A DNA stretch of 24,000 nt from Clostridia bacterium. GTDB taxonomy: Bacteria; Bacillota; Clostridia; Oscillospirales; Butyricicoccaceae. The position numbers were made by a program, and so were the translations under genes. Numbering within the stretch: position 1 is the stretch's first letter; every line of letters begins with the position of its first letter. Shown one piece after another: positions 403 to 24,000 of this stretch. The DNA lies in assembly GCA_017408985.1 (NCBI GenBank), contig JAFQTO010000024.1, forward strand, positions 24,399 to 48,398, written 5' to 3'. Under the pieces are notes generated by a model that saw nothing but the letters and a program-made list of their open reading frames with translations, was not told the DNA's origin and made no database searches.

Positions 403-777
403 ATGGAAACACCAAAAGTTTTTGAGAGCGAATACCGTTTTTGCCTTATTCTGTGGGAGCACGAGCCCATAAAAAGCGGCGAGCTTGTCAATCTGTGCGC
501 CCAAAAGCTGGGCTGGAAGCCCACCACCACCTACACGGTCATTAAGCGGCTGGGTGAGAGAGGTGTGCTCAAAAACGAGAACACCGTAGTGACCTCGCTG
601 GTAAGCAAGAGCGAGGTGCAGACCTCACAGATCGACGAGATGGTCGAAAAAACCTTTGAGGGCTCTCTGCCTGCCTTCGTTGCGGCGTTTACCCGACACC
701 GCAGGATATCGGCACGGGAGATAGATGCCGTACAGCAGATGATCGACCGCTACAGAAGGGAGAACGGTGATGACTGA
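403..777 (+). CDS. BlaI/MecI/CopY-family winged-helix transcriptional repressor
   Basis: The 124-aa ORF has the size and N-terminal winged-HTH pattern of penicillinase-repressor-family proteins (ELVNLCAQKLGWKPTTTYTVIKRLGERGVL). Its end overlaps the start of an M56 sensor-protease gene, the classic blaI-blaR1 type arrangement. Confidence 0.85.
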   Translation: METPKVFESEYRFCLILWEHEPIKSGELVNLCAQKLGWKPTTTYTVIKRLGERGVLKNENTVVTSLVSKSEVQTSQIDEMVEKTFEGSLPAFVAAFTRHRRISAREIDAVQQMIDRYRRENGDD

Positions 778-2491
778 CATATTCCTCAAGGTCGTCAATA
801 TGAGCATATCGGCAGGATGGATGGTGCTTGCGGTGGTCATTTTGCGGCTGCTGCTCAAAAAAGCGCCCAAGTTTCTTTCCGTTCTGCTGTGGGCTGTGGT
901 GGCAGTCAGGCTTGTATGCCCGTTTTCTTTGGAGAGCGGCGTGAGTCTTGTTCCAAGCTCCGAGACGGTGGCTCCGGGAATTATGTATGATGATCTTCCG
1001 GCTATTGATTCGGGTATCGATGCGGTCGACAATATCGTTAATCCCATCGTAAGCGGCTCTTTTGCACCAAATCCGGGTGACAGCGCCAACCCGCTTCAGA
1101 TACTCATTCCGCTGCTGTCTGCAGTCTGGGTGGCGGGGACGGTTTTGATGCTGGTCTACACGGCAGTCAGCTGCCTGCGGGTAAAACGCAGTACAGGCAC
1201 AGCCGTTCTTTTACGCGACAATATCTACCGCAGCGATAATCTGTCCTCACCGTTTGTGTTCGGTATCATCAGACCCCGTATATATCTGCCCGTTAACATA
1301 GACGGCGGGGATATGGAACACGTTATTGCCCACGAGAAAGCCCACATCCGCCGCAAAGACCATCTATGGAAACCGCTGGGATTTCTGATATTGGCCGTGC
1401 ATTGGTTCAATCCGCTGATATGGTTGGCATACGCCCTGCTTTGCCGTGATATCGAGCTTGCCTGCGACGAAAAGGTGGTAAAAGAGTTGAACAGCCGACA
1501 AAAAGCCGACTATTCTCAGGCACTTTTGACCTGCAGCGTAAACAGACGCGGTATCGCCGCCTGCCCTTTGGCTTTTGGCGAGATCGGCGTAAAAGGAAGG
1601 GTAAAACAGGTGCTGAGCTACAAAAAGCCGACCTTTTGGCTGATTGCGGCAGCGGTTATCGTATGCGTGATCTTTGCGGTGTGCTTCCTTACCGACCCCA
1701 AGAGCGACACCGTGCCGCCCGATGCCCCCGTGATGATCGTTGTCAGCAACGAACAGAGCATAGAGGTCAAAGCAGGAGAGGCATATCCGGACAGGGTAAG
1801 GAAATTAAACGTCAAAATAGGCGAGTCAAAGGGCGTCGCTCTGCCCAAAATAGATATCGTGCCGGCATACTTCAGCAATCTCGATCCGCTGTCTGCGCTG
1901 ATAAGCTTCAATATAGAGAGCGGCGACCCAACCCGTACAACAACCCCCGATGAGATGTATGTGGTATGCTGGCCAAACGGATACAGACCCTCAAATGAAG
2001 ATGGTCAGGATGAGTCCGTACCGGTCAAAGTGGTCAATGGGAATATGTATATTACGCTGTTTGATTCAAGCTGTGTGTATGAGGTAGTTGCCACATGGAA
2101 TGGCAGCGATGGCAGAAACGACACTTTGCGGTATACATTCTATGCTTATAAAAACAGTATGAACTTCAGCTTTTCCGCTGCCGCCGTTATTGAGATAATC
2201 GCGCTGGGCAAAGGCGGCTTCTGCCAGATCACCGATGACGACGTAATAGCCAAAATAGTTGACAAGATCAACTATGCAAAGTTTTATCCCGGCAAAATCG
2301 GTGAGTTTGAGGACAACGCCTATGAGATGAAGTTCTATGACCGTCACGCCCAACTGATAGACAAGATAATTATGATGTCCGATCGGGAGATACTCTACGG
2401 CGAGGACACCGTCAACTATATTACCGCTCCCAAATACTCTCTCGGCTACGACTATATAGACCGCCTCTACAAGCAGGCCAATCCGCAGTAA
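770..2491 (+). CDS. BlaR1/MecR1-like M56-family membrane metalloprotease/signal transducer with an unrelated extracytoplasmic C-terminal domain
   Basis: There are N-terminal TM helices, the zinc motif HEKAH in VIAHEKAHIRRKDHLWKP, and a later TM segment FWLIAAAVIVCVIFAVCFL followed by ~260 aa. Start: ATG at 770 sits 6 nt after GGAGA; GTG at 767 is also possible. The gene overlaps the repressor stop (775-777). Confidence 0.85.
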   Translation: MTDIFLKVVNMSISAGWMVLAVVILRLLLKKAPKFLSVLLWAVVAVRLVCPFSLESGVSLVPSSETVAPGIMYDDLPAIDSGIDAVDNIVNPIVSGSFAPNPGDSANPLQILIPLLSAVWVAGTVLMLVYTAVSCLRVKRSTGTAVLLRDNIYRSDNLSSPFVFGIIRPRIYLPVNIDGGDMEHVIAHEKAHIRRKDHLWKPLGFLILAVHWFNPLIWLAYALLCRDIELACDEKVVKELNSRQKADYSQALLTCSVNRRGIAACPLAFGEIGVKGRVKQVLSYKKPTFWLIAAAVIVCVIFAVCFLTDPKSDTVPPDAPVMIVVSNEQSIEVKAGEAYPDRVRKLNVKIGESKGVALPKIDIVPAYFSNLDPLSALISFNIESGDPTRTTTPDEMYVVCWPNGYRPSNEDGQDESVPVKVVNGNMYITLFDSSCVYEVVATWNGSDGRNDTLRYTFYAYKNSMNFSFSAAAVIEIIALGKGGFCQITDDDVIAKIVDKINYAKFYPGKIGEFEDNAYEMKFYDRHAQLIDKIIMMSDREILYGEDTVNYITAPKYSLGYDYIDRLYKQANPQ

Positions 2492-7889: not shown

Positions 7890-9386
7890 TTATTTTGCGT
7901 ATATTATTTCCTCATCCATAATCTTTAAAGCTTCTTGTTCAAGAAGATACGCTTCATAGCGTTTTTCGTTTGCCAGTTTTGCTAAATTGTTGATTTGCGC
8001 TTGAACTTGCTTATTCTTAAGCAACGGTATTTGAACCTGCTGAATATGCCAAGGTTCTATTGCATCAACAACTCCGCCGTAAGTAAAACGTTGAATTAGA
8101 GCTTTTCCATATTCAGAATTAAGAAAAATGTAAACATACCCGCAAATGGTATCATTGGATAATATTTGCATCATATTGTCGCTAATAGCCCAATTGAGAA
8201 AGTGCTTTGGGGGCATTATTACTTCGCCCAATGAACCACGAGCGGGTGTGAGAATAGAGTTTTCTTTAATACCAAGAGATCCTTCAAGCTGTTTTGAATG
8301 AGCTTTTCTAGACAAATATTTTTCACTTGAAGGGTCTAATTGTTTCATCTCTTTTCCACCTAAAAATTTAACGCCATAATCACTTTCTACATATACCCTT
8401 TTAAATCTACCAGGTAAAACAACATCGGAACTAATGCGACTGTCTCCAATGGTTGTAATTTCTGCTGCATGCTCTTTTAAATGTTCAATGATCGCATCAA
8501 CAATCGGCAAATGATAGGAAGCGTCAGCACGATAATTTAAATCGCTGAGTTTAACATTGAATGCATTTACAGAACTGGAATTTTCGATGTTTTTTTGCTC
8601 AAACTCGTTAATAGCAGGTAGTTTTAGTTCGGATATGAGCAATGCTGTCGCTTGGTCTATAAGATCATTCGATTCATCTCGCATTTTGTAAGAGTCGACA
8701 ATTAGGTTATGAATTCCAATTTTTATCTCTTTTGGTGCATTCGGAATAGGAACAGTAGCGAGGTGCTCCGATTCTATATGTGTTATAACGGCACCATAGC
8801 TGTTGGTAAGCAAGATTTTATTGCCTATTCTGCTTTTTAAGTATGTGTAAATGTATCCTTGATCAACCGAATTTCTGCACTCAATTCTTAAAAGATCATG
8901 ACTAAAAACCTTGTTATCTAAAGTGTCAGTTACATATGAAACTTTTCCTATGGTACCCGAACAAGTCATTAGGATTTGACCTTTCGAAACACGCAAGGCA
9001 TCTATATTTGTTTGAGTCAAGTGAGATATATAGCCATCTGGTATCGGTTTAATATCAACTATTGTAGAGGGTTGATATATAGGCAAGTCGGAATGTTCAA
9101 CCCATACTCGTTTAAATCTTGCACAAGTATAGGATGATGTTAACCCGTTCTCGCCACCAATCATAGTCAATGGGAATTTTGAGTTATTGATTATCTGCCG
9201 AGCCTGTTTTGCCTCTACATCAAAAACGCTTGCTTCAAGACGTTTGCCACGAGATATAACATCAGACAAAGACACGGAACACCATTTTATTGGAGATTCG
9301 TTAGCTTTGATATTAGAGGCATCTTGATCGTTATGCATATTCCTTAAGTTGTTGTTTACCACGACAAACCCTCCTGCTTTTTCCAT
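7890..9386 (-). CDS. HsdS-like DNA specificity subunit (two target-recognition domains)
   Basis: The protein repeats twice the layout of a variable TRD followed by a conserved helical spacer (…DQATALLISELKLP… and …INNLAKLANEKRYEAYLLEQEALKIM…). The start is uncertain: ATG 9386 has no RBS, whereas GTG 9362 follows AGGAGGG by 6 nt and overlaps the upstream stop. Confidence 0.85.
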   Translation of the reverse strand: MEKAGGFVVVNNNLRNMHNDQDASNIKANESPIKWCSVSLSDVISRGKRLEASVFDVEAKQARQIINNSKFPLTMIGGENGLTSSYTCARFKRVWVEHSDLPIYQPSTIVDIKPIPDGYISHLTQTNIDALRVSKGQILMTCSGTIGKVSYVTDTLDNKVFSHDLLRIECRNSVDQGYIYTYLKSRIGNKILLTNSYGAVITHIESEHLATVPIPNAPKEIKIGIHNLIVDSYKMRDESNDLIDQATALLISELKLPAINEFEQKNIENSSSVNAFNVKLSDLNYRADASYHLPIVDAIIEHLKEHAAEITTIGDSRISSDVVLPGRFKRVYVESDYGVKFLGGKEMKQLDPSSEKYLSRKAHSKQLEGSLGIKENSILTPARGSLGEVIMPPKHFLNWAISDNMMQILSNDTICGYVYIFLNSEYGKALIQRFTYGGVVDAIEPWHIQQVQIPLLKNKQVQAQINNLAKLANEKRYEAYLLEQEALKIMDEEIIYAK

Positions 9387-11377
9387 TCTGTAAAGATTGC
9401 AGGAATATCAGGCGTTTGATCATCTTCCACCTTCTTTTTCTGTTGGTGAGATATAGACTTATCTCCCTCTCCTGTTTCTCCAATTACAAGAACACTGTTG
9501 GTATCAGGTACAAGAATCTCATTGCCTTCTTTGTCACGTTTAAAGGTTGGGGTTCCACGTCTATCATGTCCAACCTTTTCAACCATAGCCATAAAGATAT
9601 TATAATCTGCCATTGTGCCCGCTTTTTCCTCAGTATCTTTCTGTTGCTGAGTTTTCTTTTGTAAGAAAAGAACCGAAGTTTGTGTGCCATTTCGAGGTTG
9701 GAAAGTATCGACGTGCAAATCAACACTACCGATAATTCGATGATTTTTTATCAACCATTCACGAATATATCCTAAACCGGGCGAACCAAGAATTGAATCA
9801 GGAAGAACTATACCCAATCTGCCGCCTTCAACAAGTAATTGTGTGCAACGCTCGATAAATAAGATTTCGGGAGGCACAGAGGATTGCAAACGTTCAGTCA
9901 TTGTCCAAACGCCTGTCTTTTTATTGTTTTCCCAAATGTGAGCAAGTTCAAATTGTTCTAAAATATTTTTATCTTTCACAGGGATTTTACTACCAAAAGG
10001 TGGGTTTGTAACAATAACATCAAAATATGCAATGGTATTATGATTTCTCAACTCACTTTTTTCAATACCGAGTGCCTCTGCTAATTTAGTGCGAAACTCA
10101 TCCGTCCATTCGTGAGGAGGTAAAAGCGAATTGGTTTGAAGAATATTACCACTACCATCATTGTTCATAACCATATTCATTTTGGTCGCTTTAACAAGGT
10201 CGGGATTGATATCGAATCCAAAATAATAGTGTGAAGCCATATCCGAAATACGATCGTTAAATGCGCGCATAGAGTCACTATCCCAATTCTTTCGATCACA
10301 GCCAATTTGTGCTGAAAATTCTCTTTCGAGATCTGCAATTACGTGTGTCATGGCAGTAACTAAGAAGCCACCTGTACCGCAAGAGCTATCCAATACTCTT
10401 TCGTCCATCTTGGGATTTATCATCTCAACAACCATCTTCATAACGTTACGAGGCGTAAAGAATTCACCTCTATCGCCACGGAGGTTGGCGCCAACAATTT
10501 CTTCGTATGCCTTCCCTTTAATGTCGATGTTAGTGTTAAGAAGGCTGTATTTCTGAAGTTCACTTACTATGTATGCCAAGCTTCTAGGTGCAAGTTTGAT
10601 TTCGTCATTGGAATCAAAAATTTTTCCGTGTTTTTTCTTTACTCTTTCAAAAATCTTCGATATACGCTTTTTAACGGTAAGCTGACCATCGGGATTTGAA
10701 CGTTCTTCTGATGTAGTGTAAAAATCAAGAGGATTAGGGATATTACGTTCATCTTCAATTTTGCAGAAAATAACCTTTAACAGTTCAAAAAACGCAGGCT
10801 GTTTTTGCAAACCATCATTTACGTGAATATGATTATGACAGGTCTTAAAAACGAACAATAAATTATCATCGTAAGCATTTTTTAATGATGTTCTTTTGGG
10901 GCGGTTAATATCATCCAAACTACCGTCAGCAGAGGGAATATCATTGTAATCCATAAAATCAATTTGTCCCTTATCATTGACAAATTTACGGAATACTTCT
11001 TTCTGCTTGCCGTTTGTCCACATACCCCACTCACAGTTAGGACAAGCAGACATATAAGATTTTAGTTGTTCAACACCATCTTTAGCATTACGTGCTTCAA
11101 CTGCCTCTTTCTTACACTCGATAATCAATTTGACGTTTTCTTGGGTTTGTTCGATGCAGTCTTTGTCAAAGATAACAATATCTGCACGCGGCTTACGTGA
11201 GCCGAGTTGCAGCGTATATTCGATCTTAATCTGTTTAGGCAGATACTTATGCTCGTTTACAAGTCTTTTTTCAATAGTTTGTCTTACATACTCTTCGGGT
11301 GTATCGTTACGGAATTTTCCATCGACATAGTCGCAGATTTTACCATCCGGTATAACAATCACTTTAGTTTCAGCCAT
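9356..11377 (-). CDS. Fused restriction endonuclease / N6-adenine DNA methyltransferase (BcgI-A-like RM subunit)
   Basis: The N-terminus has a PD-(D/E)xK-like motif as in HSDR_N domains (RADIVIF…VKLIIECKKE). SAM-binding motif I is LDSSCGTGGFL and catalytic motif IV is TNPPFGS. No helicase/translocase domain or separate hsdR is nearby. RBS AAGGAG precedes ATG 11377. Confidence 0.85.
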   Translation of the reverse strand: MAETKVIVIPDGKICDYVDGKFRNDTPEEYVRQTIEKRLVNEHKYLPKQIKIEYTLQLGSRKPRADIVIFDKDCIEQTQENVKLIIECKKEAVEARNAKDGVEQLKSYMSACPNCEWGMWTNGKQKEVFRKFVNDKGQIDFMDYNDIPSADGSLDDINRPKRTSLKNAYDDNLLFVFKTCHNHIHVNDGLQKQPAFFELLKVIFCKIEDERNIPNPLDFYTTSEERSNPDGQLTVKKRISKIFERVKKKHGKIFDSNDEIKLAPRSLAYIVSELQKYSLLNTNIDIKGKAYEEIVGANLRGDRGEFFTPRNVMKMVVEMINPKMDERVLDSSCGTGGFLVTAMTHVIADLEREFSAQIGCDRKNWDSDSMRAFNDRISDMASHYYFGFDINPDLVKATKMNMVMNNDGSGNILQTNSLLPPHEWTDEFRTKLAEALGIEKSELRNHNTIAYFDVIVTNPPFGSKIPVKDKNILEQFELAHIWENNKKTGVWTMTERLQSSVPPEILFIERCTQLLVEGGRLGIVLPDSILGSPGLGYIREWLIKNHRIIGSVDLHVDTFQPRNGTQTSVLFLQKKTQQQKDTEEKAGTMADYNIFMAMVEKVGHDRRGTPTFKRDKEGNEILVPDTNSVLVIGETGEGDKSISHQQKKKVEDDQTPDIPAIFTEWKKQEGLSW

Positions 11378-13322: not shown

Positions 13323-13961
13323 ATGAAACTGATTGATCTGACCCACACCATTTACCCGGATATGCCCGTCTATCCCGGAACAGAACAACCCAAGCTCTCC
13401 CCCGCCTCGGACTACGAAAAAGACGGCTTTAAGGAGACCTATCTGCAAATGTTCTCCCACACCGGCACCCACATTGACGCCCCTTCTCACATTTTCCCCG
13501 GACGGACCTCTCTGGATCAGTTTCCTGCAGAGCAGTTTGCGGGTATGGCGCTGGTGGTGGACTGCCGGGATCTGAAGCCGGGTCAGCGGATCACCATGGC
13601 AAAGATTCCAACAGACCTGGCGCAACAGGCGGACTTTCTGCTGTTTGATCTGGGCTGGGACAAATATTGGGGCACAGCTACGTACTTTGGGGACTATCCC
13701 TACCTGGACGATGCCGTCATGGATTACATCCTCTCCGGGGATTTCAAGGGCATCGGCTTTGACGGGATCAGTCTGGATCCCATTTCCGATTGCCGCCTCA
13801 CCCTACATAAAAGGCTTTTTGCTGAAAAAGATATCATCAACATTGAAAATCTGAAGGGCCTGCATCTGTGCGGAAAGGACCTTTTCCATTTCGGCTGTTT
13901 CCCCCTGAAGTTCCGGGACGCCGACGGCGCTCCTGCCCGGGCAGTCGCTTGGTGGGACTGA
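13323..13961 (+). CDS. Cyclase-family protein (arylformamidase / kynurenine formamidase-like)
   Basis: Signature HTGTHIDAPSH (HxGTHxDxPxH) and a typical ~210-aa length. Confidence 0.8.
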   Translation: MKLIDLTHTIYPDMPVYPGTEQPKLSPASDYEKDGFKETYLQMFSHTGTHIDAPSHIFPGRTSLDQFPAEQFAGMALVVDCRDLKPGQRITMAKIPTDLAQQADFLLFDLGWDKYWGTATYFGDYPYLDDAVMDYILSGDFKGIGFDGISLDPISDCRLTLHKRLFAEKDIINIENLKGLHLCGKDLFHFGCFPLKFRDADGAPARAVAWWD

Positions 13962-14037
13962 CAGGGTCAGCAACTTTGGAAAAAAGCCATTGCCTTAAGC
14001 AGAAGCAAACCGAACAGATAATTTCCCCAAAAAGGCG

Positions 14038-14065
14038 TTGAATTTTACGGAAAATTGGCTATAAT
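14038..14065 (+). promoter_or_regulatory. Promoter for the amidohydrolase gene
   Basis: TTGAAT (14038-14043), a 16-nt spacer, then TATAAT (14060-14065). Confidence 0.55.
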
Positions 14066-14095
14066 AAAAGCAATTTCCAAGGCGAGGCGATTTCA

Positions 14096-14881
14096 ATGAA
14101 GATCATAGATATCCACACCCACATATATCCCGATGACATTGCCCAAAAGGCAACGGACAGCGTGCGGAATTTTTATCAGATCGGCGACTTTTCCATGAAC
14201 GGCACTGCGGATATGCTGCTCAAGCGCGGCGCCCAGGCCGGCATCAGCCAATTTGTGATCCTGCCGGTGGCAATCCGTCCGGACCGGGTGCAGCACATTA
14301 ACGATTTTATCTGGGAGCAGGCGCAGCTCCACGACTGCTTCATTCCCTTCGGTACGGTCCATGCCGCCATGGACGGTCTGACTGACGAGGTGGAGCGACT
14401 GCTTTCTCGGGGTGTCAAGGGCATCAAGATACACCCGGATTCCCAGCGGTTTGGCATCGATGACCCCCGGCTGTTCCCCATGTACGAAGCCATCCGGGGC
14501 AGAGTGCCGGTGCTGTTGCACATGGGCGACCACCGCTACAACTACTCCCACCCCGTAAAGCTACGGAAGATGCTGGATATGTTCCCCGGGTTGAATGCCA
14601 TCGCCGCCCATTTCGGCGGTTACAGCATGTATGAGACCGCCTGCGAATTGCTCCGGGATACAGACTGCGTCATGGATATTTCCAGCTCCATGATGTTTAT
14701 GGATCCGGGGGTGCCGGAAAAATATATCAACCTTTACGGCGCTGAGCGTATGGCTTTCGGCTCGGACTATCCCATGTGGGATCCCCTGAAGGAGGTCGGG
14801 CAGTTCCTGGATCTGGATCTGACCGATGCCCAAAAAGAGCAGATCGCCTGGAAAACCGCCACCCGCATTCTAAAGTTATAA
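14096..14881 (+). CDS. Amidohydrolase-family (TIM-barrel metal-dependent hydrolase) protein
   Basis: N-terminal IIDIHTHIYP metal-binding motif and C-terminal FGSDYPMWDP; ~260 aa. Confidence 0.8.
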   Translation: MKIIDIHTHIYPDDIAQKATDSVRNFYQIGDFSMNGTADMLLKRGAQAGISQFVILPVAIRPDRVQHINDFIWEQAQLHDCFIPFGTVHAAMDGLTDEVERLLSRGVKGIKIHPDSQRFGIDDPRLFPMYEAIRGRVPVLLHMGDHRYNYSHPVKLRKMLDMFPGLNAIAAHFGGYSMYETACELLRDTDCVMDISSSMMFMDPGVPEKYINLYGAERMAFGSDYPMWDPLKEVGQFLDLDLTDAQKEQIAWKTATRILKL

Positions 14882-15062: not shown

Positions 15063-15102
15063 TCCCTCAGTCTTTTTGCTGCGCAAAAATTCAGCTCCCT
15101 TT
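15063..15102 (+). repeat. Third copy of the intergenic motif-hairpin-motif element
   Basis: TCCCTCAGTC-TTTTTGC-tgc-GCAAAAA-tt-CAGCTCCCTTT. The flanks CCCTCAGTC and CAGCTCCC match the reverse strand of 7702-7737, but the internal hairpin has a different sequence. Confidence 0.6.
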
Positions 15103-15177
15103 ACACAAGGAAGCCGGTGTTTCCCCTATCTTAAAGTAATTGCGTTTTGACGGTTGGCGGGTTCTTTGACGCTCTGA

Positions 15178-15215: not shown

Positions 15216-16289
15216 TTACTTACCCACTTTGACACGCCAACCCTTGGTATCGGGCAGACGGCCGGTCTGAATGCCGGTGATGGTATCGTAGAGCTTCAGA
15301 CTCAAAGGACCGGTCTCGCCGTTGCCAATGGTCATGACCTCATTCTGATAGCGCAACTTGCCCACCGGCGAGATAACGGCGGCAGTGCCGGTACCGAACA
15401 CCTCTTCCAAAGTGCCATCCTTCTGGGCCTGCAACAGCTCCTCAGCGGAGATCTTCCGCTCCTGGACCTCATAGCCCCAATCCTTGCACAGCTCGATGGT
15501 GGAGTTGCGGGTGATGCCGGGCAGGATAGAGCCGCTGAGCGCAGGTGTGACCACCTTGCCGGCGATCTTGAAGAAGATGTTCATAGCGCCCACCTCTTCA
15601 ATGTACTTGCGCTCCACGCCGTCCAGCCACAGGACCTGAGAATAGCCTGCGTCGTGGGCCTTCTGCTGGGCGATCAGGCTGGCGGCGTAGTTGCCGCCGG
15701 TCTTGGCAAAGCCGATGCCGCCACGGACTGCCCGGACATACTCATCCTCGATCCAGATGCCTACAGGCGCCAATCCGCTTTCGTAGTAAGCGCCGCTGGG
15801 GGAGAGGATCACCATAAACAGGTAGGTCTTTGAGGGCGCAACACCCAGGAACTCATCGGTGGCGATGATGAAGGGACGGATGTACAAAGATGTGCCGGGC
15901 TCGGTGGGAATCCAATCCCGATCTACATCCACCACTGCGCTGACAGCCTGCACAAAGTCCTCAACAGGCAGTTGGGGAATCACCAGACGGTCGTTGGTGT
16001 TGTTGGTCCGCTTTGCGTTCATATCGGGGCGGAACAGGAAGATATCGCCGTTGTCGCCCTTATAGGCCTTCAAGCCCTCGAACATCTCCTGGCCGTAGTG
16101 GTAGACCATGGCGGCAGGAGAAAGGCTGATGTTCTGGAAGGGCACGATCCGGGGATCATGCCAACCCTGGCCCTCTGTATAGTTCATTACGAACATGTGA
16201 TCTGTGAAGATCTTACCGAAGCCCAGCTTCTGGCCGGGGGCCGGCTTTTGCTTGGGGCTTGTGGTTTTGGTAATTTTAATATTCAGCAT
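15216..16289 (-). CDS. ilvE: Branched-chain amino acid aminotransferase
   Basis: 357 aa with class-IV aminotransferase/BCAT signatures (FGKIFTDHMF, MFEGLKAYK, AKTGGNYAASL). RBS AAGGGAGG. Confidence 0.92.
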   Translation of the reverse strand: MLNIKITKTTSPKQKPAPGQKLGFGKIFTDHMFVMNYTEGQGWHDPRIVPFQNISLSPAAMVYHYGQEMFEGLKAYKGDNGDIFLFRPDMNAKRTNNTNDRLVIPQLPVEDFVQAVSAVVDVDRDWIPTEPGTSLYIRPFIIATDEFLGVAPSKTYLFMVILSPSGAYYESGLAPVGIWIEDEYVRAVRGGIGFAKTGGNYAASLIAQQKAHDAGYSQVLWLDGVERKYIEEVGAMNIFFKIAGKVVTPALSGSILPGITRNSTIELCKDWGYEVQERKISAEELLQAQKDGTLEEVFGTGTAAVISPVGKLRYQNEVMTIGNGETGPLSLKLYDTITGIQTGRLPDTKGWRVKVGK

Positions 16290-16301
16290 AATATGCCTCC
16301 C

Positions 16302-16835
16302 TTAGAAATCGTAGCCGGTCTGCAGAGCCTGGCAGTTGATGTCGATGAGATTTGCCTTCTTGGCAGGGATAAAGGACTCCAGAGTCTGCCGGTTGCCTGC
16401 AAAAGGAACAGCACTACATTCCTTCATCAGCTTGCCTACCAACACCATGTTGGCCAATGTGGCAAATCCGGCATCCTTTGCCAGCTGGGTGGCCGGCAGG
16501 TAGAACGCCTCTACATCGGTACGCTCCACCTTCGCATCGATCAGCGTGGAATCCACGATGATCTTGCCACCGGGAACCACGGTATCCACATACTTCTGCA
16601 GAGAAGGCAGGTTCATGGCGATGAGCACATCCGGGGCAGTGACGATGGGACTGCCTACAGGGTCCTCCGACAGGATCACACTGCAGTTGGCTGTGCCGCC
16701 ACGCATCTCCGGTCCGTAGGAGGGCAACCAGGAGACCTGCAGATTCTCTGTCAGACCTTTGTATGCCAAAAACTTACCGGCAAACAGGACGCCCTGTCCA
16801 CCGAAGCCGGCGATGAGGATCTGTGTTGTTTTCAT
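16302..16835 (-). CDS. 2-oxoacid:ferredoxin oxidoreductase, gamma subunit
   Basis: N-terminal ILIAGFGGQGVLFAGK motif, ~177 aa. ATG 16835 overlaps the beta-subunit stop (TGATG); GTG 16838 is an alternative start. Confidence 0.88.
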   Translation of the reverse strand: MKTTQILIAGFGGQGVLFAGKFLAYKGLTENLQVSWLPSYGPEMRGGTANCSVILSEDPVGSPIVTAPDVLIAMNLPSLQKYVDTVVPGGKIIVDSTLIDAKVERTDVEAFYLPATQLAKDAGFATLANMVLVGKLMKECSAVPFAGNRQTLESFIPAKKANLIDINCQALQTGYDF

Positions 16836-17590
16836 CACTTTCCCTCCTTTGCCGCAGTGCGGTCCTTATAGACACCGATGGGATAGTAAGGAAGCATATC
16901 GCTTTCCACCCACTCCAGTGCCTTCTGGGGTGTCATGCCCCAGTTTGTGGGACAGGCGGAGACGACCTCTACCAGGGAGAAGCCCTTGCCGTCGATCTGG
17001 TTCTGGAAGGCCTTTTTGATGGCCTTCTTGGCCGCATTTACATTTTTCACATTGTTCACTGCTACCCGGGCGATGAACTCAGGACCCTCCAGAGTGGAGA
17101 GCATCTCACTGACCTTGATGGGCCAGCCGCAGTGGTTCACATCTCTGCCGTAGGGAGAGGTCTGGGTGACCTGCCCAGGCAGGGAGGTGGGCGCCATCTG
17201 ACCGCCGGTCATGCCGTAAATGGCATTGTTGACGAAGATCACAGTGATATTTTCGTTTCTTGCGGCGCTGTGGACCGTTTCTGCCATGCCGATGGAGGCC
17301 AGGTCGCCGTCACCCTGGTAGGTGAAGACCACGTTCTCCGGGCGGCAACGCTTAATGCCGGTGGCCACTGCCGGCGCTCTGCCGTGGGCGGCCTCGATCA
17401 TATCGCAGGCAAAATAGTCATATGCCATAACAGCGCAACCGACAGGCGCAACACCGATGGCTTTGCCCTTGATGCCCAGCTCGTCGATGACCTCAGCCAC
17501 CAGACGGTGGATAATACCGTGGGGACAGCCGGGGCAATAATGGAAAGGCGCATCTGTCAGTGCCTTGGGTTTTTTGAATACAACAGCCAT
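16835..17590 (-). CDS. 2-oxoacid:ferredoxin oxidoreductase, beta (TPP-binding) subunit
   Basis: [13 protein letters not shown] cluster/TPP region and [12 protein letters not shown] motif; 251 aa. Confidence 0.9.
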
Positions 17591-17592
17591 GA

Positions 17593-18651
17593 TTACTCTC
17601 CTTTCTGCGCCTTGCGGATGGCCGCCAGCACCTCATCGGGGCTGGGGATCATGCCGCCGCAGCGATTGCACAGGCTGACAGGCTTTTTACAGCCGGTAGC
17701 AAGCCGGATATCCTCGATCATTTGACCCATGTTCAGCTCAACGCTGATGAAGCTCTTTACCTTTTCCGCCGCGGCGGCAAGGGGCTTTGTGGGGAAGGGC
17801 CACAGGGTAATGGGACGGATCAGACCCACCTTGATACCCTCTGCCCGGGCGGCTACCACCGCGTTCTTTGCCACACGGGAGGCAATACCGAAGGCCACCA
17901 CACAGTACTCGGCGTCCTCCATCATGTACTCTTCCCACATGGCTTCCTTCTCTTCCACTGTTTTATACCGCTCATAGCGCTCGAAGTTCTTGACCTCCAG
18001 CTCATCGGGCTTTAAGTACAGAGAGTTGACGATGTTGTGCTTTCTCTCGCCGTTGGTGCCGGTGAGGGCCCAGGGCTTTTCGTAGGTCTCGATCTGCGCA
18101 TCCTCGAAGGAGATCGGCTCCATCATCTGACCGATGGTGCCGTCTGCCAGGATCATAGCGGTCATCAAATACTTATCGGCCAGATTGAAGCCCTTAATGG
18201 TCAGACTGGCCATTTCCTGCACAGAGGCCGGGGCCAGAACGATCATCCGGTAGTCACCGTGACCGCCACCCTTGGTGGCCTGGAAATAATCAGACTGAGA
18301 AGGCTGGATGCCACCCAGGCCGGGGCCGCCACGCTGGACGTTTACCACCAGGGCAGGCACATCGGAGCCGGCAATATAGCTCAAGCCCTCTGCCTTCAGG
18401 GAAATTCCGGGGCTGCTGGAGGAGGTCATGACCCGCATGCCTGCGGCGGCGGCGCCATAGACCATATTGATGGAAGCGACCTCACTTTCCGCCTGGAGGA
18501 ACACGCCGCCGATCTTGGGCATCTTCTTGGCCATATATGCGGCGATCTCCGTCTGGGGCGTGATGGGGTAGCCAAAATAGTGACGACAGCCGGCACGGAT
18601 GGCGGCTTCGGCAATGGCTTCATTGCCCTTCATTAATACTCTTTCTGCCAT
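17593..18651 (-). CDS. 2-oxoacid:ferredoxin oxidoreductase, alpha subunit (VorB-like size class)
   Basis: N-terminus [30 protein letters not shown] is typical of POR/KOR/VOR alpha subunits; 352 aa. Substrate class cannot be read from the sequence alone. Confidence 0.9.
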
Positions 18652-18663
18652 GTTTGCGCCTCC

Positions 18664-18870
18664 TTACTTTTCTACTGTGATGATACAGTCGGGGCACATG
18701 GTGGCGCAGAATGCGCAACCGATGCACTTATCCGGCTCTGCCATCACCGCAGGTGAATAGCCTTTTTTGTTGATCTTATCCGAGGCAATGGTCAGACAGC
18801 CCTTGGGGCAGGCATTGACGCACAGGCCACAGCCCTTGCAAAGATCGGTTTCGAATGTAAGTTTTGCCAT
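18664..18870 (-). CDS. 2-oxoacid:ferredoxin oxidoreductase, delta subunit (2x[4Fe-4S] ferredoxin)
   Basis: 68 aa with CKGCGLCVNACP and CIGCAFCATMCP. Confidence 0.9.
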   Translation of the reverse strand: MAKLTFETDLCKGCGLCVNACPKGCLTIASDKINKKGYSPAVMAEPDKCIGCAFCATMCPDCIITVEK

Positions 18871-18897: not shown

Positions 18898-19602
18898 TTA
18901 TCCCCACAGAGGCCGAGCCTTCGGCTTCTGAGACGGTAAATCAAAGTATTTTTCCTGCAGTTGCAGGGGGAAAACATTGTTAAGGGTATCCGCCAGGGTC
19001 GCCGCCACCGCTTTTTCAGCAGTGTGCAACCAAACCGGCAGTCCGGAAAGCGCGCTGAGCGCTTCTATGTAGGAAAGGGATTCCAGCACCGTTTCGGCGG
19101 TGGTCTCCGACGCCAGGTTGGTATTGTTGACGATGCAGGTGAAGCAAAGCCCACAGGCCTGCTCGATCTCACCCATCACCTCCAGGGCCTCCGCCGGTGT
19201 CCGGGTCAGAGGGCGGCTGGCATTGGCAACGAATACCATGCGGTAGTTATTCTCTTCCTTGATAAAAGGGACATATCTGCCCAGGGCATAGGCGCCCCGG
19301 TCATCTCCGCCGATATCCATGACGGCGAAGCTGTTTTTATCCTGGACCAGCCGGTAGGCCTCCGCCGGAAGGGCCGGCAGGTCTACGTTGGAATTGGTAA
19401 ATTGAGATGTGATCAGATCAATACCGGCCTCCTTCAGCGCCTTGGCGCTGTCAGCGGTACGGAAATAGGGATTGACGATGTCCAGGTCAGCGATACAGAC
19501 CTTTTTCCCCTCCGACGCCAAATGCAGGGCGTAATTGACTGCGATATTGGTCTTGCCGCTACCGTAATGGCCGGCAAACAGGGTCAGACGTTTATGTTCC
19601 AT
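18898..19602 (-). CDS. P-loop NTPase of unknown role (SIMIBI-like)
   Basis: Walker A motif FAGHYGSGKTN followed by VCIADLDIVNPYF and a hydrophobic-strand-Asp motif AVMDIGGDD. Start ATG 19602 lies 1 nt after the upstream stop. Confidence 0.6.
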   Translation of the reverse strand: MEHKRLTLFAGHYGSGKTNIAVNYALHLASEGKKVCIADLDIVNPYFRTADSAKALKEAGIDLITSQFTNSNVDLPALPAEAYRLVQDKNSFAVMDIGGDDRGAYALGRYVPFIKEENNYRMVFVANASRPLTRTPAEALEVMGEIEQACGLCFTCIVNNTNLASETTAETVLESLSYIEALSALSGLPVWLHTAEKAVAATLADTLNNVFPLQLQEKYFDLPSQKPKARPLWG

Positions 19603-19603
19603 A

Positions 19604-20554
19604 TTACTCCTTGCCGGGGATCGCCCAGGGGTTATCCAGCGTATATTTCACCGTGTCGATGATAGCTTGCTTCATTTCCGCCGTCACTGCCATATCGCCC
19701 AGGTTTTGGGTGGAGGAATGGCGCAGATGGGACGGTACGGAATCCAGGTTGATCTGGGTCACAGCATTGCCGGTGAACTGGGCGTACCAGGCATAGCCGA
19801 TCATCAAACAGCCGTAGTCATTCAAATGGGTGTGATCCCGATACAACTGAACCTCGGGGATATTCAGCTCTTTAAGGGCATACATCAGCGGCGTGCCGGA
19901 GGTCACGTGACCTGCAAACATGGGGTCATCCAGGACCGTATCGATGGCAGTTTGGTTGGTCTGGGTCAGCTGTGCCAGCTGATCCACCTGGGATGCCTCC
20001 ACAGGGTTGTCGTACAGCACGGGATCGGTGGAATTGAACCATGTGGAATGCCACCAGTAGGTATGGGGCGTCTGTACACAGCCATCCACATATTCCGTAA
20101 TATATTTCCGGGCATTCTCATTCATGTTGTTTTCTGTGTCGCCGTTGCCGGCCTGCAGGACCACCACATCCCAGGCCTGGTCCATAAGACCCACATCCAT
20201 GATCACGCCCTTGGTGATCTTCCATCTGCCGTCGGTGTTGCAGTAGTAGTCATAGGCGGCTTCGTTGTTTTTCATAAAATCCACATGCATGGACATGCTG
20301 CAGCCGCTATGGTACATGATGCCAAGGACCACCTTCTTATCGGGCATTTGATCCGTGAAGGCAGTATGGAGCATTTGAAAGGCATTGACAGAACGGCTGG
20401 AGCCCAGGATCATGATCTTCAGTACCTCTGCCTCCTCCGGACTTTCCGTTGCCTGGGTGGTGGCAGTGGTCTGCGACGGCGCTTCATTGCCACAGCCGAC
20501 AAAAATGCCGACCAGCAGGCACAGACACAGGATGTAGAGCATATATCTTTTCAT
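19604..20554 (-). CDS. Lipoprotein, DUF4886/SGNH-hydrolase-like
   Basis: Signal peptide with lipobox (LLVGIFVGC|GNE), a low-complexity linker, then IMILGSSRS…WDVVVLQAG…YRDHTHLNDYGCLMIGYAWY. This resembles SGNH-fold DUF4886 proteins; the family assignment is from memory only. Confidence 0.55.
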   Translation of the reverse strand: MKRYMLYILCLCLLVGIFVGCGNEAPSQTTATTQATESPEEAEVLKIMILGSSRSVNAFQMLHTAFTDQMPDKKVVLGIMYHSGCSMSMHVDFMKNNEAAYDYYCNTDGRWKITKGVIMDVGLMDQAWDVVVLQAGNGDTENNMNENARKYITEYVDGCVQTPHTYWWHSTWFNSTDPVLYDNPVEASQVDQLAQLTQTNQTAIDTVLDDPMFAGHVTSGTPLMYALKELNIPEVQLYRDHTHLNDYGCLMIGYAWYAQFTGNAVTQINLDSVPSHLRHSSTQNLGDMAVTAEMKQAIIDTVKYTLDNPWAIPGKE

Positions 20555-20565
20555 ATGTATTCTCC

Positions 20566-22857
20566 TTACAGCTTTTTGCGAATAATCTTGCCGCTGGTTG
20601 TCTTGGGCAGACTCTCTCTGAATTCCACGATCCGGGGATACTTATAGGGCGCAGTCCGGGACTTGACATAGTCCTGGATCTGTTTTTTCAGCTCGTCGGT
20701 GCCCTTAAAGTCCTTTACCAGCACGATGGAAGCCTTGACCACCTGGCCACGGATCTCATCGGGGGCGGCGGAGACACCGCACTCCAGCACGTAGGGAAGC
20801 TCCATGATCACGTTTTCGATCTCGAACGGTCCGATCCGGTAACCGGAGGACTTGATCACGTCGTCGGCACGGCCCACATACCAGTAGAAGCCGTCCTCAT
20901 CCTTCCAGGCCAGGTCGCCGGTATGGTAGAAGCCGTCACACCAGGTCTCGGCAGTCACATCGGGACTTCCCTCGTAAGCAAAGCTGAGGCCGCAGGGCAG
21001 GCCCTTGGAGATGTCGATACAGATCTCGCCGGTCTCGCCACGGTCCACGATCTTGCCTTCGGAATTCAACAGCTGAACGTTATACAGCGGTACCGGCTTG
21101 CCCATAGAGCCAAGCTTGTGACTGCTGCCAAGGAGATTGCCGATGATCAAGGTGCTCTCGGACTGACCGAAGCCCTCCATGATATCCAAACCGGTGGCGT
21201 TCTGGAACTGGCGGTAGACCTCCGGGTTCAGCGCCTCGCCGGCAGTGGAGGCATGCTCGATGGTGCTCAGATCAAAACGGCTCAGGTCCTGCTTGGCCAG
21301 CATCCGGTACATGGTGGGCGGCGCGCAGAAGGTGGTGATGCCGTACTGCTTGAACATGGGCAGGATCTTCTCCGCGTCGAAGCGGTCGAAATCGTAGACA
21401 AACAGGCCTGCCTCACAGAGCCACTGGCCGTAGAGCTTGCCCCACATGGACTTTGCCCAGCCGGTATCGGAGATGGTCAGGTGCAGACCGTCGGGGCGGA
21501 CACAGTGCCAGTATTTTGCTGTGATAAAATGACCCAGGGGATACTTATAATTGTGAGCCGCCAGCTTGGGATAGCCGGAAGTGCCGGAGGTGAAGAACAT
21601 CAGCATGGGGTCAGAGCCACAGGGCGCATCGGCTGTTCTTGCAAAGTGACTGCTGTACATGGAATATTCTTCGTCAAAATCATGCCAGCCTTCCCGACTG
21701 CCTCCCACCAGGATCTTGTGGGCAAGTCCGGGATACTGGGCGGCGGCCTCATCCACCGCAGTGGCGGTGTCACCGTCAGCGGTACACAGGATCGCCCGGA
21801 CATCTGCCGCCTGGAACCGGTAGGCAAAGTCCTTGACAAGGAGCTGGTTGGTAGCAGGGATCGCCACAGCGCCCAGCTTGTGCAGGCCCAAAATCGCAAA
21901 CCAGAACTGGTAATGGCGCTTGAGCACCAGCATCACCCGGTCGCCACGCTTGATGCCCATGGCCTTAAAGTAGTTTGCCGCCCGGGCAGACTCCTTTTTC
22001 ATATCCTGGAAGGTGAAGGTGCGTTCCGTGCCGTCCAGACTCACATGAAGCATGGCGCGGCGGTCCGGCTTCTTTCTGCCCAGGGCATCGATGATGTCGA
22101 AGGCGAAATTGAACTTATCTTCGTTTTTGAAGTCAATGGCAGTGATCCTGCCCTGCGCATCTTCTGTGGGAATGATAAAGTTGTGGTAAATGCGTTGCTC
22201 CGGATCCACACCGGGCAGTTTTGCAGAGGGTGTTGCCACTGCCGCCGCCTGCTCACCCTCACGGGCGGCAGAGTTTCTCAGTACGATGGCATAGAAAGCG
22301 CAATCCTCCCCTTCCGCGGCAACCATGCCGTGGGGCGTGGCAGAATCATAATAGATACAGTCGCCGGGGTGCAGGATCTCCGTATGACCGCCGATCTGGA
22401 TCTTCATATGACCCCGGATCACGATGTCGCACTCCTGGCCCTCATGGGTGGTCAGCTCCATATCCTCAAACTCGGCGCCCTCCCGGTAGGCAAGTTCCAT
22501 GTAAAGAGGCAGAGCGATACGATTGCGGAAATCAGCCGCCAGGTTATATCCCACCATATGGTGCGCTTCCTCAATGCGCTGTCCCTCACCCTTACGGGTC
22601 AGGGCATAGGAGCGCAGTTTGGGGCTGTGGCCTTCCAGAAGGTCGCTGAAGTCAACGCCGAAGATCAGCGCGCAATGGTACAAAAAGGCAATGCTCATAT
22701 TGCGGGAACCGTTTTCGTACTGGGTATACTCCTGCACAGAAACACTGGTGCGCTGAGCCATCTCCTCCACGGTGAAGCCGCTGATCTGCCGCAGCTCCCG
22801 GATACGCCCTGCAACCTCCCGTATCTTGTAGTCCATGCCTGTCATTGTCTGTTCCAT
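20566..22857 (-). CDS. Fusion protein: XRE-type HTH + cupin (PuuR-like regulator module) + AMP-forming acyl-CoA synthetase
   Basis: One uninterrupted 763-aa ORF. aa ~10-70 form an HTH (IRELRQISGFTVEEMAQRTSVSVQEYTQYENGSRN). aa ~120-195 form a cupin (HEGQECDIVIRGHMKIQIGGHTEILHPGDCIYYDSATPHG). aa ~215-763 form an adenylate-forming ligase (FFTSGTSGYPK, YHTGDLAW, GRADDVIKSSGYRIGPFEIE, PKTTSGKIIRKKL). RBS AAGAGG precedes ATG 22857. Confidence 0.85.
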   Translation of the reverse strand: MEQTMTGMDYKIREVAGRIRELRQISGFTVEEMAQRTSVSVQEYTQYENGSRNMSIAFLYHCALIFGVDFSDLLEGHSPKLRSYALTRKGEGQRIEEAHHMVGYNLAADFRNRIALPLYMELAYREGAEFEDMELTTHEGQECDIVIRGHMKIQIGGHTEILHPGDCIYYDSATPHGMVAAEGEDCAFYAIVLRNSAAREGEQAAAVATPSAKLPGVDPEQRIYHNFIIPTEDAQGRITAIDFKNEDKFNFAFDIIDALGRKKPDRRAMLHVSLDGTERTFTFQDMKKESARAANYFKAMGIKRGDRVMLVLKRHYQFWFAILGLHKLGAVAIPATNQLLVKDFAYRFQAADVRAILCTADGDTATAVDEAAAQYPGLAHKILVGGSREGWHDFDEEYSMYSSHFARTADAPCGSDPMLMFFTSGTSGYPKLAAHNYKYPLGHFITAKYWHCVRPDGLHLTISDTGWAKSMWGKLYGQWLCEAGLFVYDFDRFDAEKILPMFKQYGITTFCAPPTMYRMLAKQDLSRFDLSTIEHASTAGEALNPEVYRQFQNATGLDIMEGFGQSESTLIIGNLLGSSHKLGSMGKPVPLYNVQLLNSEGKIVDRGETGEICIDISKGLPCGLSFAYEGSPDVTAETWCDGFYHTGDLAWKDEDGFYWYVGRADDVIKSSGYRIGPFEIENVIMELPYVLECGVSAAPDEIRGQVVKASIVLVKDFKGTDELKKQIQDYVKSRTAPYKYPRIVEFRESLPKTTSGKIIRKKL

Positions 22858-22859
22858 AA

Positions 22860-23158
22860 TTACCTCTTAAATCAAAACAAAAAGCTCGTCTCAAAGGATA
22901 GTTTCCTTGAGACGAGCTGTTAAAAAGCAACCCGCGGTACCACTCAAATTGCAGTTGCCTTACGGCTCACTGCCACTCATCGAGCGCAGACACGCTCTAA
23001 GCATTGACGCAGCTGACACGTGGAGGTTCTACCGGCAAATTGCTTTCTTCCTCCCGGCTCCGGAGGGACACTCACACTGCTTCTGCCATGGCTTGCACCA
23101 ACCGCCAATTCTCTGAGGCAGGGTCTGCAGGGGAGATTCTCCATCACAGCCTTTATGA
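22860..23158 (-). promoter_or_regulatory. T-box riboswitch leader (tRNA-sensing antitermination)
   Basis: Read on the minus strand. Stem I spans 23151-23056, with K-turn GGC-UGU-GA-UGGAG … CUCCG-GA-GCC, AG bulge AGAGA and distal loop GGUUGGUGCAA. The T-box sequence AAUUUGAGUGGUACCGCGG lies at 22950-22932. The antiterminator (UUUGAG/CUCAAG and GCGGG/CUCGU around the bulge UGGUACC) is mutually exclusive with the terminator 5-prime arm. Confidence 0.85.
22871..22918 (-). terminator. Leader (attenuator) terminator of the T-box
   Basis: On the minus strand: AGCUCGUCUCAAGGA-loop-UCCUUUGAGACGAGCU followed by UUUUUGUUUUGAUUU. It ends ~10 nt before the RBS of the fusion gene. Confidence 0.85.
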
Positions 23159-23164
23159 TAGGAA

Positions 23165-23193
23165 ATCATATCATTTTTATATGAAGTTGTCAA
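23165..23193 (-). promoter_or_regulatory. Sigma-A promoter of the T-box operon
   Basis: On the minus strand: TTGACA (23188-23193), a 17-nt spacer, then TATGAT (23165-23170). The palindrome TATGAT-N5-ATCATA (23154-23170) overlaps the -10 and the predicted transcription start. Confidence 0.75.
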
Positions 23194-23247: not shown

Positions 23248-24000
23248 TTACAGCTTATTGCGCATGATCTTGCCACTGATGGTCTTGGGCAGTTCCGTGC
23301 GGAACTCCACGATCCGGGGGTACTTATAAGGCGCAGTGTGCTGTTTGACGTAATTCTGGATCTCCTTTTTCAGCTCGTCGGTGCCCTCTGTGCCGGGAAC
23401 CAGCACGATACAGGCCTTGACCACCTGGCCACGGACTTCGTCCGGAGCGGCGCAGACACCGCACTCCAGCACGTAGGGCAGTTCCATAATGGTGGATTCG
23501 ATCTCGAAGGGTCCGATCCGGTAGCCCGAGGACTTGATCACATCGTCGGCACGGCCTACATACCAGTAGTAGCCATCCTCATCCCGCCATGCCACATCGC
23601 CGGTATGATACATACCGTCATGCCATGCCGCATCGGTGGCTTCCTTGTTCAGATAGTAGCCCAGGAACACACCGCAGGTAGGATTGGGATCGGTACGGAT
23701 AACGATCTCGCCGTTAATACCGTCTTCCACCGGGTTGCCCTCGGCATCCACGATATCGATGCCGTAGCCGGGGACAGGCTTACCCATGGCGCCGGGCTTG
23801 ATCTCGGTGCCAAAGAGATTCGCAATGCCAAGGGTCATCTCAGTCTGACCGAAGCCCTCATGAATCCGCAGGCCGGTCGCCTTTTCAAACTGATAGAACA
23901 CCTCAGGGTTCAGCGCCTCACCTGCCGTAGTAGCATGGTGGATCGTAGAAAGATCATACTTGCTCAAATCTTGCTTGATCAGCATCCGGTACATGGTAGG
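23248..24000 (-). CDS. AMP-forming acyl-CoA synthetase, C-terminal part (5-prime end lies beyond the window)
   Basis: The C-terminal ~250 aa are highly similar to the ligase part of the fusion protein (YHTGDVAW, GRADDVIKSSGYRIGPFEIE, IMELPYVLECGV, TAPYKYPRIVEF, LPKTISGKIMRNKL). The ORF is still open at the window edge. Confidence 0.85.
   Translation of the reverse strand, partial: PTMYRMLIKQDLSKYDLSTIHHATTAGEALNPEVFYQFEKATGLRIHEGFGQTEMTLGIANLFGTEIKPGAMGKPVPGYGIDIVDAEGNPVEDGINGEIVIRTDPNPTCGVFLGYYLNKEATDAAWHDGMYHTGDVAWRDEDGYYWYVGRADDVIKSSGYRIGPFEIESTIMELPYVLECGVCAAPDEVRGQVVKACIVLVPGTEGTDELKKEIQNYVKQHTAPYKYPRIVEFRTELPKTISGKIMRNKL

Follow-up and report, generated by a model that had tools for sequence, protein, structure and literature searches.

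Organization of the locus

The minus strand of the window analysed here, a 24,000-nucleotide (nt) stretch of contig JAFQTO010000024.1 (positions 24,399 to 48,398; GenBank assembly GCA_017408985.1) from a Clostridia bacterium of the GTDB family Butyricicoccaceae, carries at positions 22873-23193 a promoter, a T-box leader and a terminator/antiterminator switch. The switch controls eight genes that run from 22857 to 15216 with gaps of no more than 27 nt and encode, in order, LigB (a regulator-acyl-CoA ligase fusion), a DUF4886 protein, a ParA/Mrp-like ATPase, the four subunits of a VOR-like 2-oxoacid:ferredoxin oxidoreductase and the aminotransferase IlvE. Taken as a whole, the arrangement is probably a tRNA-Val-specific transcriptional T-box in control of an isobutyrate-to-valine operon. 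Coordinates are those of the window, and features lie on its minus strand unless stated otherwise.

Promoter and leader RNA

Transcription is served by a sigma-70-type promoter (23165-23193) with a TTGACA hexamer (23193-23188), a 17-nt spacer and a TG-extended TATGAT hexamer (23170-23165). A consensus scan counted 11 of 12 consensus matches, and both hexamers are kept in all aligned relatives. The leader RNA (22905-23156) matches Rfam family RF00230 over model positions 1-219, the entire model, at 76.8 bits; under permissive filters the E-value is 5.4e-17 for the region and 2.6e-15 for the whole window. The gathering score of RF00230 in Rfam 15 is 93 bits, and Rfam scanning of the window at default settings returned no match because that score is high, not because the element is absent. 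No other family appeared in the window at E 0.01 in the permissive scan.

The low score is a property of the family. The Val T-boxes of the window (22905-23156) and of four related contigs (L007 9703-9956, L033 9713-9958, L063 9706-9955 and L083 2519-2770) are all sub-threshold at 77-86 bits, whereas the neighbouring Ile and Leu T-boxes exceed the gathering score and the cluster sisters reach 98-125 bits. Since the deficit against 93 bits is systematic, threshold-based annotation will overlook the Val T-box family.

The anatomy of the leader is that of a full-length T-box. Stem I, delimited by the RF00230 alignment, RNAalifold and covariation, spans 96 nt (23056-23151) and has at its base a K-turn with UGUGAU on the 5' side and GGA on the 3' side, around a GGAG/CUCC helix; within it lie an AG bulge (AGAGA, 23114-23110) and the distal loop GGUUGGUGCAA (23103-23093). 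The specifier codon GUC (23067-23069) is followed by C23066 and the CUCC helix strand (23065-23062). In the RF00230 alignment a Stem II S-turn, a Stem IIA/B element and Stem III all fall between Stem I and the discriminator: Stem II (23022-23054) carries an S-turn-type motif GAAGAAAG...GUAGAA, the next element (23004-23020) consists of the Stem IIA hairpin (23020-23008) and an F-box-like CGUCAA, and Stem III occupies 22951-22973, as located by RNAalifold and pair counting. Neither the full leader nor Stem I on its own gave an informative minimum free energy fold (Stem I z = +0.4), and the T-box architecture was not recovered in this way, which made a comparative analysis necessary.

The terminator-antiterminator switch

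The T-box sequence AAUUUGAGUGGUACCGCGG (22932-22950) contains UGGU at 22942-22939, the predicted partner of the tRNA 3' ACCA. The antiterminator (22906-22948) comprises helix A1, a 7-nt bulge UGGUACC and helix A2 with a basal G-U pair, and folding 22950-22905 alone gave -12.4 kcal/mol with exactly this canonical bulge. An intrinsic terminator (22873-22918) follows, made of a 14-bp stem (22918-22883) and a U tract; UUUUUGUUUUG is the sequence directly after the stem in the consensus scan, which reported one strong terminator. It folds at -23.3 kcal/mol (z -7.6; none of 200 shuffles equally stable) and shows covariation across related leaders in RNAalifold. The 5' arm of the terminator is the 3' strand of the antiterminator (22916-22907), the common sequence being CUCGUCUCA, and of these two mutually exclusive structures upstream of the regulated gene the terminator is the more stable (-23.3 against -12.4 kcal/mol). 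Therefore, termination is the default and the antiterminator needs stabilising. A ribosome-binding site AAGAGGUA (AAGAGG, 22861-22868), read from the sequence, lies after the U tract and before the ATG at 22857.

The original prediction had read a complete T-box directly from the minus strand, with a consensus promoter and an antiterminator 3' strand doubling as the 5' arm of the terminator. All of its elements were recovered at their places: the promoter as TTGACA-17-TATGAT with its 11 of 12 matches across 23193-23165, the two alternative folds with their common strand, and the leader as an end-to-end RF00230 match backed by covariation. The RF00230 search that it had named as its check came out divided, in that the curated threshold is missed while the match is statistically very strong (E 5e-17).

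Conservation and covariation

A search of GTDB species representatives with the LigB protein returned more than 560 relatives, and the best 80 loci were used. All 80 belong to metagenome-assembled genomes (MAGs) of Faecousia or other Oscillospiraceae from human and ruminant guts; the homologous protein search returned only close relatives with generic names, none of which was cultured or characterised. At nearly every related locus a divergent Leu T-box is followed by an Ile T-box with the ligase gene ligA, and then by ligB, the ParA-like gene, VorDBAG and sometimes IlvE. The Val T-box of the window is the internal, second member of this Ile/Val/Leu T-box cluster.

Forty-three distinct Faecousia/Oscillospiraceae leaders homologous to the window leader, differing to 57-86% nucleotide identity, were aligned. 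RNAalifold independently recovered Stems I, II, IIA and III and the terminator from this alignment, with compensatory changes at 27 of 54 pairs. Pairs were then counted on the named structure, antiterminator included, with partners slid by 1-3 columns and 500 shuffles as controls. In the named structure 96.2% of cells are paired, as against 34-46% in the slid controls, and both partners have changed in 23 of 46 pairs (175 cells); none of the 500 shuffles reached any observed measure. Compensatory changes occur in 10 of the 16 pairs of Stem I (helices 1-4), in all four pairs of Stem II (helix 5; 15-20 sequences in three pairs and 3 in the fourth) and in six of the eight pairs of Stem III (helix 7), helices 5-7 together giving 11 of 16. 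The A1/A2 core of the antiterminator (helices 8-9) is mostly invariant, so that covariation is silent on it. Of the 43 leaders, 42 have the basal G-U pair of A2, which the structural literature counts as part of the aminoacyl sieve (PMC7583486).

These results bear on whether the leader might be a decaying, non-functional remnant, with the operon constitutive or driven by the upstream Ile T-box only. The score under the Rfam gathering threshold would suit such decay, as would the roughly one-third of related loci that lack a Val T-box, which shows the element to be dispensable in some genomes. Compensatory changes nevertheless maintain all helices across leaders as divergent as these, and the specifier, the UGGU bulge, the basal G-U pair of A2 and the terminator are all kept. 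The promoter is near-consensus, and a terminator of -23.3 kcal/mol directly upstream of the ribosome-binding site would silence the operon unless relieved. Decay is thus very improbable and, with its structure kept and covarying across 43 leaders, the element is almost certainly a genuine T-box under selection.

Specifier codon and tRNA identity

The RF00230 alignment places GUC (23069-23067) in the codon columns. The '+0' frame of TBDB is defined as codon, one nucleotide, then helix (PMC7778990), which is the layout of the window leader. The codon position among the 43 leaders is occupied by GUC in 40, GUA in two and AUC in one, the last coming from a single-ligase locus with a T1-like (Ile-type) leader. 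The base 5' of the codon is variable (U, G, A or C). Among the GUC leaders, the base 3' of it is G 22 times, C 13 times, A four times and U once; both GUA leaders have G there. All 54 leaders of the sister Ile T-box read AUC, with A, C or G next, against the G that begins the codon in the Val family; the first codon base is therefore class-specific. At most loci the codon of the divergent Leu T-box is CUG, a few having CUC or CUU instead, and any of the four bases can come next. Because it varies only among synonymous Leu codons in the same frame, the frame is validated.

The discriminator-binding bulge is consistent with this assignment. UGGU is invariant (43/43), and a tRNA-Val(UAC) in a related MAG (L071) ends ...GUUCCC-A-CCA, so that its A73 matches the U of UGGU and supports a Val-type bulge. 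This was the only tRNA-Val among the searched pieces of related MAGs, and no tRNA gene lies within the window.

The specifier loop GAGUGUCC also holds UGU (Cys, -1 frame) and UCC (Ser, +1 frame), both overlapping GUC, and the leader might be a functional T-box that responds to cysteine or serine through one of them. GUC lacks the usual purine after it, the +1 frame in relatives yields UCC, UCG and UCA, all Ser codons, and TBDB permits -1 and +1 frames in ambiguous cases (PMC7778990). The covariance alignment nevertheless sets GUC in the codon columns, UGU is not conserved given the variable base before GUC, and the GUA-G of two leaders becomes the stop codon UAG in the +1 frame. Were UCN the codon, there would be no point in the strict G at the first base of the Val family and the strict A of the sister family. 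The partner of UGGU is the A73 of Val, Ile and Leu tRNAs, which the related-MAG tRNA-Val carries, whereas U73 is the norm for Cys tRNAs and G73 for Ser tRNAs. Finally, the +0 frame is confirmed for this lineage by the Leu T-box, and the downstream genes are branched-chain specific, so that a serine or cysteine response is highly unlikely. GUG, UGU and UCC were all rejected as specifiers on the conservation pattern of the 43 leaders.

Valine specificity of the T-box is therefore held with high confidence on the comparative evidence. The valine-type specifier GUC anticipated by the original prediction stands, as does its view that UGGU implies A73. Its alternative, GUG, is not kept, the 5' neighbour of the codon varying across the leaders. 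Its doubt over the C that follows GUC, which had been taken as a sign that the loop might be atypical, can be set aside: the base after the codon is G, C, A or U across all three T-box families of the cluster. Because this base varies in the sister Ile and Leu T-boxes too, the C is a trait of the lineage rather than a defect, and the purine-after-codon rule is relaxed there.

The regulated operon

The first gene, ligB (20566-22857), encodes a 763-aa fusion of an XRE-type helix-turn-helix (HTH), a cupin and an AMP-forming acyl-CoA synthetase, and is a predicted isobutyrate-CoA ligase. Its ligase portion, which carries AMP-binding and AMP-binding_C domains, is closest to PDB entry 3ETC (MacsMa; 617 bits, E 2.9e-184), far above ACSM2A and acetyl-CoA synthetases. 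The best NCBIfam model is MbcS; LigB is not assigned to MbcS itself but is a homologue that probably has a similar function. MacsMa of Methanosarcina acetivorans prefers 2-methylbutyrate (PMC10455477), and Staphylococcus aureus MbcS is selective for 2-methylbutyrate and isobutyrate (PMC10026030). The HTH-cupin module of LigB (22153-22857, about 235 aa) has a single sequence match in PDB, the HTH-cupin regulator 1Y9Q (E 9e-4), and the LigA paralogue carries one too (L007 7310-9649). The module may bind DNA, as a second layer of control on top of the T-box, or sense a metabolite.

Downstream of ligB, a 316-aa DUF4886 protein is encoded at 19604-20554. Only the lineage of the window (contigs L081-L083) has a DUF4886 gene at this place, with ligB on one side and the ParA-like gene on the other; it is missing from all 80 related loci and looks like a recent insertion into the operon. 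The ParA/Mrp-like P-loop ATPase (18898-19602, 234 aa, Walker A GHYGSGKT) is found directly upstream of VorD in every related locus at 61-83% identity and is a possible Fe-S cluster or maturation factor of VOR.

All four VOR subunits are encoded together: delta (VorD, 18664-18870), a 68-aa 2x[4Fe-4S] ferredoxin of the Fer4 family with two CxxCxxCxxxCP motifs; alpha (VorB, 17593-18651), matching NF005507 at 548.8 bits against a cut-off of 399; and the thiamine pyrophosphate-binding beta (16835-17590) and gamma (16302-16838) subunits, both assigned by domain and NCBIfam searches. IlvE, the branched-chain amino acid aminotransferase (15216-16289), exceeds the cut-offs of two models, NF009897 (496.7 bits, cut-off 307) and TIGR01123 (409.4 bits, cut-off 250). 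These domain matches, with VorB and IlvE above curated cut-offs, bear out the earlier description of the operon as a regulator-ligase fusion followed by a VOR-like oxidoreductase and IlvE. A terminator-like hairpin (15092-15116) about 100 nt past the ilvE stop codon likely marks the end of the operon, the next gene being convergent on the other strand.

Converging on the operon end are genes for a putative cyclase (PF04199) and an amidohydrolase (PF04909) at 13323-14881 on the plus strand, a pair that also occurs in the same-lineage contigs L081 and L082. Farther away, a restriction-modification pair (7890-11377, minus strand) comprises a 673-aa HSDR_N, N6_Mtase and Eco57I protein and then a 498-aa Methylase_S protein, and a BlaR1-type M56 peptidase/sensor (574 aa; 403-2491, plus strand) is preceded by an overlapping 124-aa open reading frame that is possibly a BlaI-like repressor.

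The T-box cluster and its evolution

Immediately upstream of the Val T-box unit, at the end of the window, lies the 3' part of ligA (23248-24000), which encodes a paralogous HTH-cupin-acyl-CoA ligase 86-95% identical to the LigA proteins of relatives; the full-length paralogue shares 60% identity with LigB. An Ile (AUC) T-box precedes ligA in relatives, and contig L083, which encodes an identical LigB protein, retains the 3' half of a T1-type (Ile) T-box upstream of ligA.

The Leu T-box of the cluster (L007 6720-6954, minus strand, and the equivalent site in about 55 loci) lies outside the window, upstream of ligA and divergent from the Ile T-box. It scores 111-119 bits and drives a leuA-like gene (470 aa) together with an 825-aa fusion of a xylose-isomerase-like TIM barrel and an acyl-CoA ligase. 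A Phe T-box (UUC, 125 bits; L063 18738-18973, plus strand) was found in one locus, a few kb downstream of the VOR-IlvE genes and before a 545-aa AMP-binding ligase, which suggests that the pairing of T-box and acyl-CoA ligase extends to aromatic acids. A regular expression built on AGTGGTAC... missed both the Leu and the Phe T-boxes, which were recovered by running Rfam on whole loci.

The Val T-box is present in about two-thirds of related loci. In the others ligA and ligB either abut, which suggests a single Ile-controlled operon, or are separated by an internal promoter and a short untranslated region. Several contigs (L008, L009, L010, L011, L029 and L032 among them) have in this short untranslated region a conserved small hairpin, UUUUCCGG...CCGGA, about 100 nt upstream of ligB. 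The regulatory layout of the ligA-ligB junction is evolutionarily plastic. The Val T-box is 65-69% identical to the Ile T-box and 57-62% to the Leu or Phe T-boxes, values that are compatible with, and lend weak support to, a duplication of a T-box-ligase unit and a one-base switch from AUC to GUC.

Proposed mechanism and physiology

We propose the following model. Transcription would start near 23157 from the operon's own promoter, and the GUC specifier in Stem I would pair with the anticodon of tRNA-Val. With uncharged tRNA-Val, the free 3' ACCA would pair with the UGGU of the bulge and stabilise the weaker antiterminator, allowing RNA polymerase to proceed into the eight genes. With charged tRNA-Val, the stronger terminator would form and transcription would halt before the ribosome-binding site. 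The ligase would convert isobutyrate to isobutyryl-CoA, the four-subunit VOR would carboxylate isobutyryl-CoA reductively to 2-oxoisovalerate with reduced ferredoxin, and IlvE would transaminate 2-oxoisovalerate to valine. In the same manner, the Ile T-box would control the upstream ligA, presumably for 2-methylbutyrate, and the divergent Leu T-box would control the leuA-like gene and a third ligase.

The analysis shows the architecture of the RNA with its conservation and covariation, the specifier, the competing folds, the genes present and the layout of the cluster; we infer tRNA-dependent read-through, the ligase substrate and the direction of VOR. For the last of these, induction on valine shortage fits synthesis and would be perverse for catabolism, which argues for carboxylation; the acid-to-acyl-CoA direction follows from the AMP-forming ligase, which commits the acid to acyl-CoA. 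The route itself has physiological precedent: rumen anaerobes carboxylate isobutyrate to form valine, 2-methylbutyrate to form isoleucine, isovalerate to form leucine and phenylacetate to form phenylalanine (Allison and co-workers, cited in PMC7356843).

Several observations count against the model. At the level of the RNA, the RF00230 score is under the gathering threshold in the window and in three relatives (84-86 bits), and the window GUC is followed by C, not by the usual purine. No tRNA-Val(GAC) was found among the window and 60 loci, the latter being pieces of about 20 kb of related MAGs, and tRNA binding and read-through are deduced from sequence. At the level of the enzymes, LigB scores 415.9 bits against the cut-off of 850 of the MbcS equivalog (NF047394), the substrate specificities of ligase and VOR are not readable from sequence, and IlvE directly follows the VOR genes in only about one-quarter of related loci. 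Isoleucine made from the LigA product would also need VOR, whose place behind a Val-specific terminator is unexplained; since the Val unit has its own promoter and its terminator blocks read-through from the Ile unit, starvation for isoleucine only would not induce VOR.

The protein evidence also leaves room for a different use of the same switch. VOR is reversible and best known in the oxidative direction. A Val-specific T-box could govern an operon that ferments valine oxidatively, or one that turns external isobutyrate into branched acyl-CoA primers for membrane fatty acids in a valine-sparing role like that of MbcS, the closest named ligase family, which in S. aureus feeds branched-chain fatty acid synthesis (PMC10026030); the absence of IlvE from the operon in many relatives agrees with either. 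Breaking down valine while tRNA-Val is uncharged would, however, be counter-productive, and AMP-forming ligases are not used for energy-conserving acid production. Primer supply needs the ligase alone, yet every locus co-transcribes VOR, and that of the window IlvE as well. Amino acid supply is also what the parallel cases suggest, in which Ile, Leu and Phe T-boxes precede other ligases and a Leu T-box controls leuA. We consider lipid-primer supply or valine fermentation unlikely, and an anabolic isobutyrate-to-valine function reasonably likely.

In the anabolic model, the specifier serves as an independent functional label: it says that the ligase-VOR-IlvE operon raises valine, which implies a carboxylating VOR and a ligase that accepts isobutyrate. 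Applied to the Ile, Leu and Phe T-boxes, this reasoning covers three further ligases and yields testable substrate predictions. We lean, by a small degree, towards a broader proposal in which a set of T-boxes of uncultured gut and rumen Oscillospiraceae (Ile-AUC, Val-GUC, Leu-CUG and, in at least one genome, Phe-UUC) each gate their own acyl-CoA ligase, with the Ile and Val units sharing VOR, so as to form a tRNA-charging regulon that would produce amino acids through the reductive carboxylation of fermentation acids. If this is true, specifier codons predict the substrate of each ligase now annotated only as 'AMP-binding protein'. A requirement for branched-chain volatile fatty acids was reportedly described by Allison and Bryant in the 1960s, and the proposal, if correct, would give it a gene-level and regulatory basis. 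The host clade, Faecousia, is very abundant and uncultured; for gut and rumen microbiology, an old physiological question becomes directly testable.

Comparison with known systems

Known branched-chain T-box targets are synthetases, ilv/leu genes, ilvE and transporters. In Bacillus and Lactobacillus, ilvBHC-leuABCD and ilvE operons are under T-box control (RegPrecise tables, PMC3766115), and the window resembles these operons in that an Ile/Leu/Val-type T-box gates branched-chain supply, with ilvE a known target. It differs from them in its pathway, a reverse 'salvage' route from acid to acyl-CoA to 2-oxoacid as opposed to the acetolactate route. No VOR or acyl-CoA ligase target appears in the RegPrecise regulon tables (PMC3766115) or in the text of the Wels 2008 survey, and no T-box before either kind of gene was met in the literature searched, which included the TBDB paper and had Vitreschak 2008 and Gutierrez-Preciado 2009 outside its scope. 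Full-text searches combining T-box with VOR, ketoisovalerate, isobutyrate or acyl-CoA returned nothing relevant.

Among its enzymes, the ligase shares strong ligase-domain homology with MacsMa (3ETC) and MbcS, of which both prefer 2-methylbutyrate and MbcS also takes isobutyrate. Unlike these references, it has an N-terminal HTH-cupin module of about 235 aa, VOR and IlvE as neighbours and a T-box. The oxidoreductase has the four subunits of VOR, and its predicted reaction is identical to that of rumen isobutyrate carboxylation (Allison & Peel 1971, cited in PMC7356843). In the classical rumen work genes and regulation were undefined; in the window they are laid out, and the direction of the reaction is read from regulatory logic only.

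The leader itself follows the RF00230 leaders that have a Stem II and a IIA/B pseudoknot, such as those of Bacillus subtilis tyrS and valS/ileS, and its elements come in the same order: K-turn, specifier loop, AG bulge, distal loop, Stem II S-turn, IIA/B, Stem III and UGGN bulge. It departs from RF00230 leaders in its sub-threshold score and in not keeping the purine after the codon, and its specifier is GUC as compared with GUA, the commonest Val specifier in TBDB (61%, PMC7778990). Like known T-boxes, it has a 7-nt UGGN bulge and an antiterminator opposed to an intrinsic terminator, with uncharged tRNA predicted to turn expression on; unlike them, its target is not an aminoacyl-tRNA synthetase, a canonical ilv/leu gene or a transporter. 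The RNA mechanism is canonical; the target operon is unusual.

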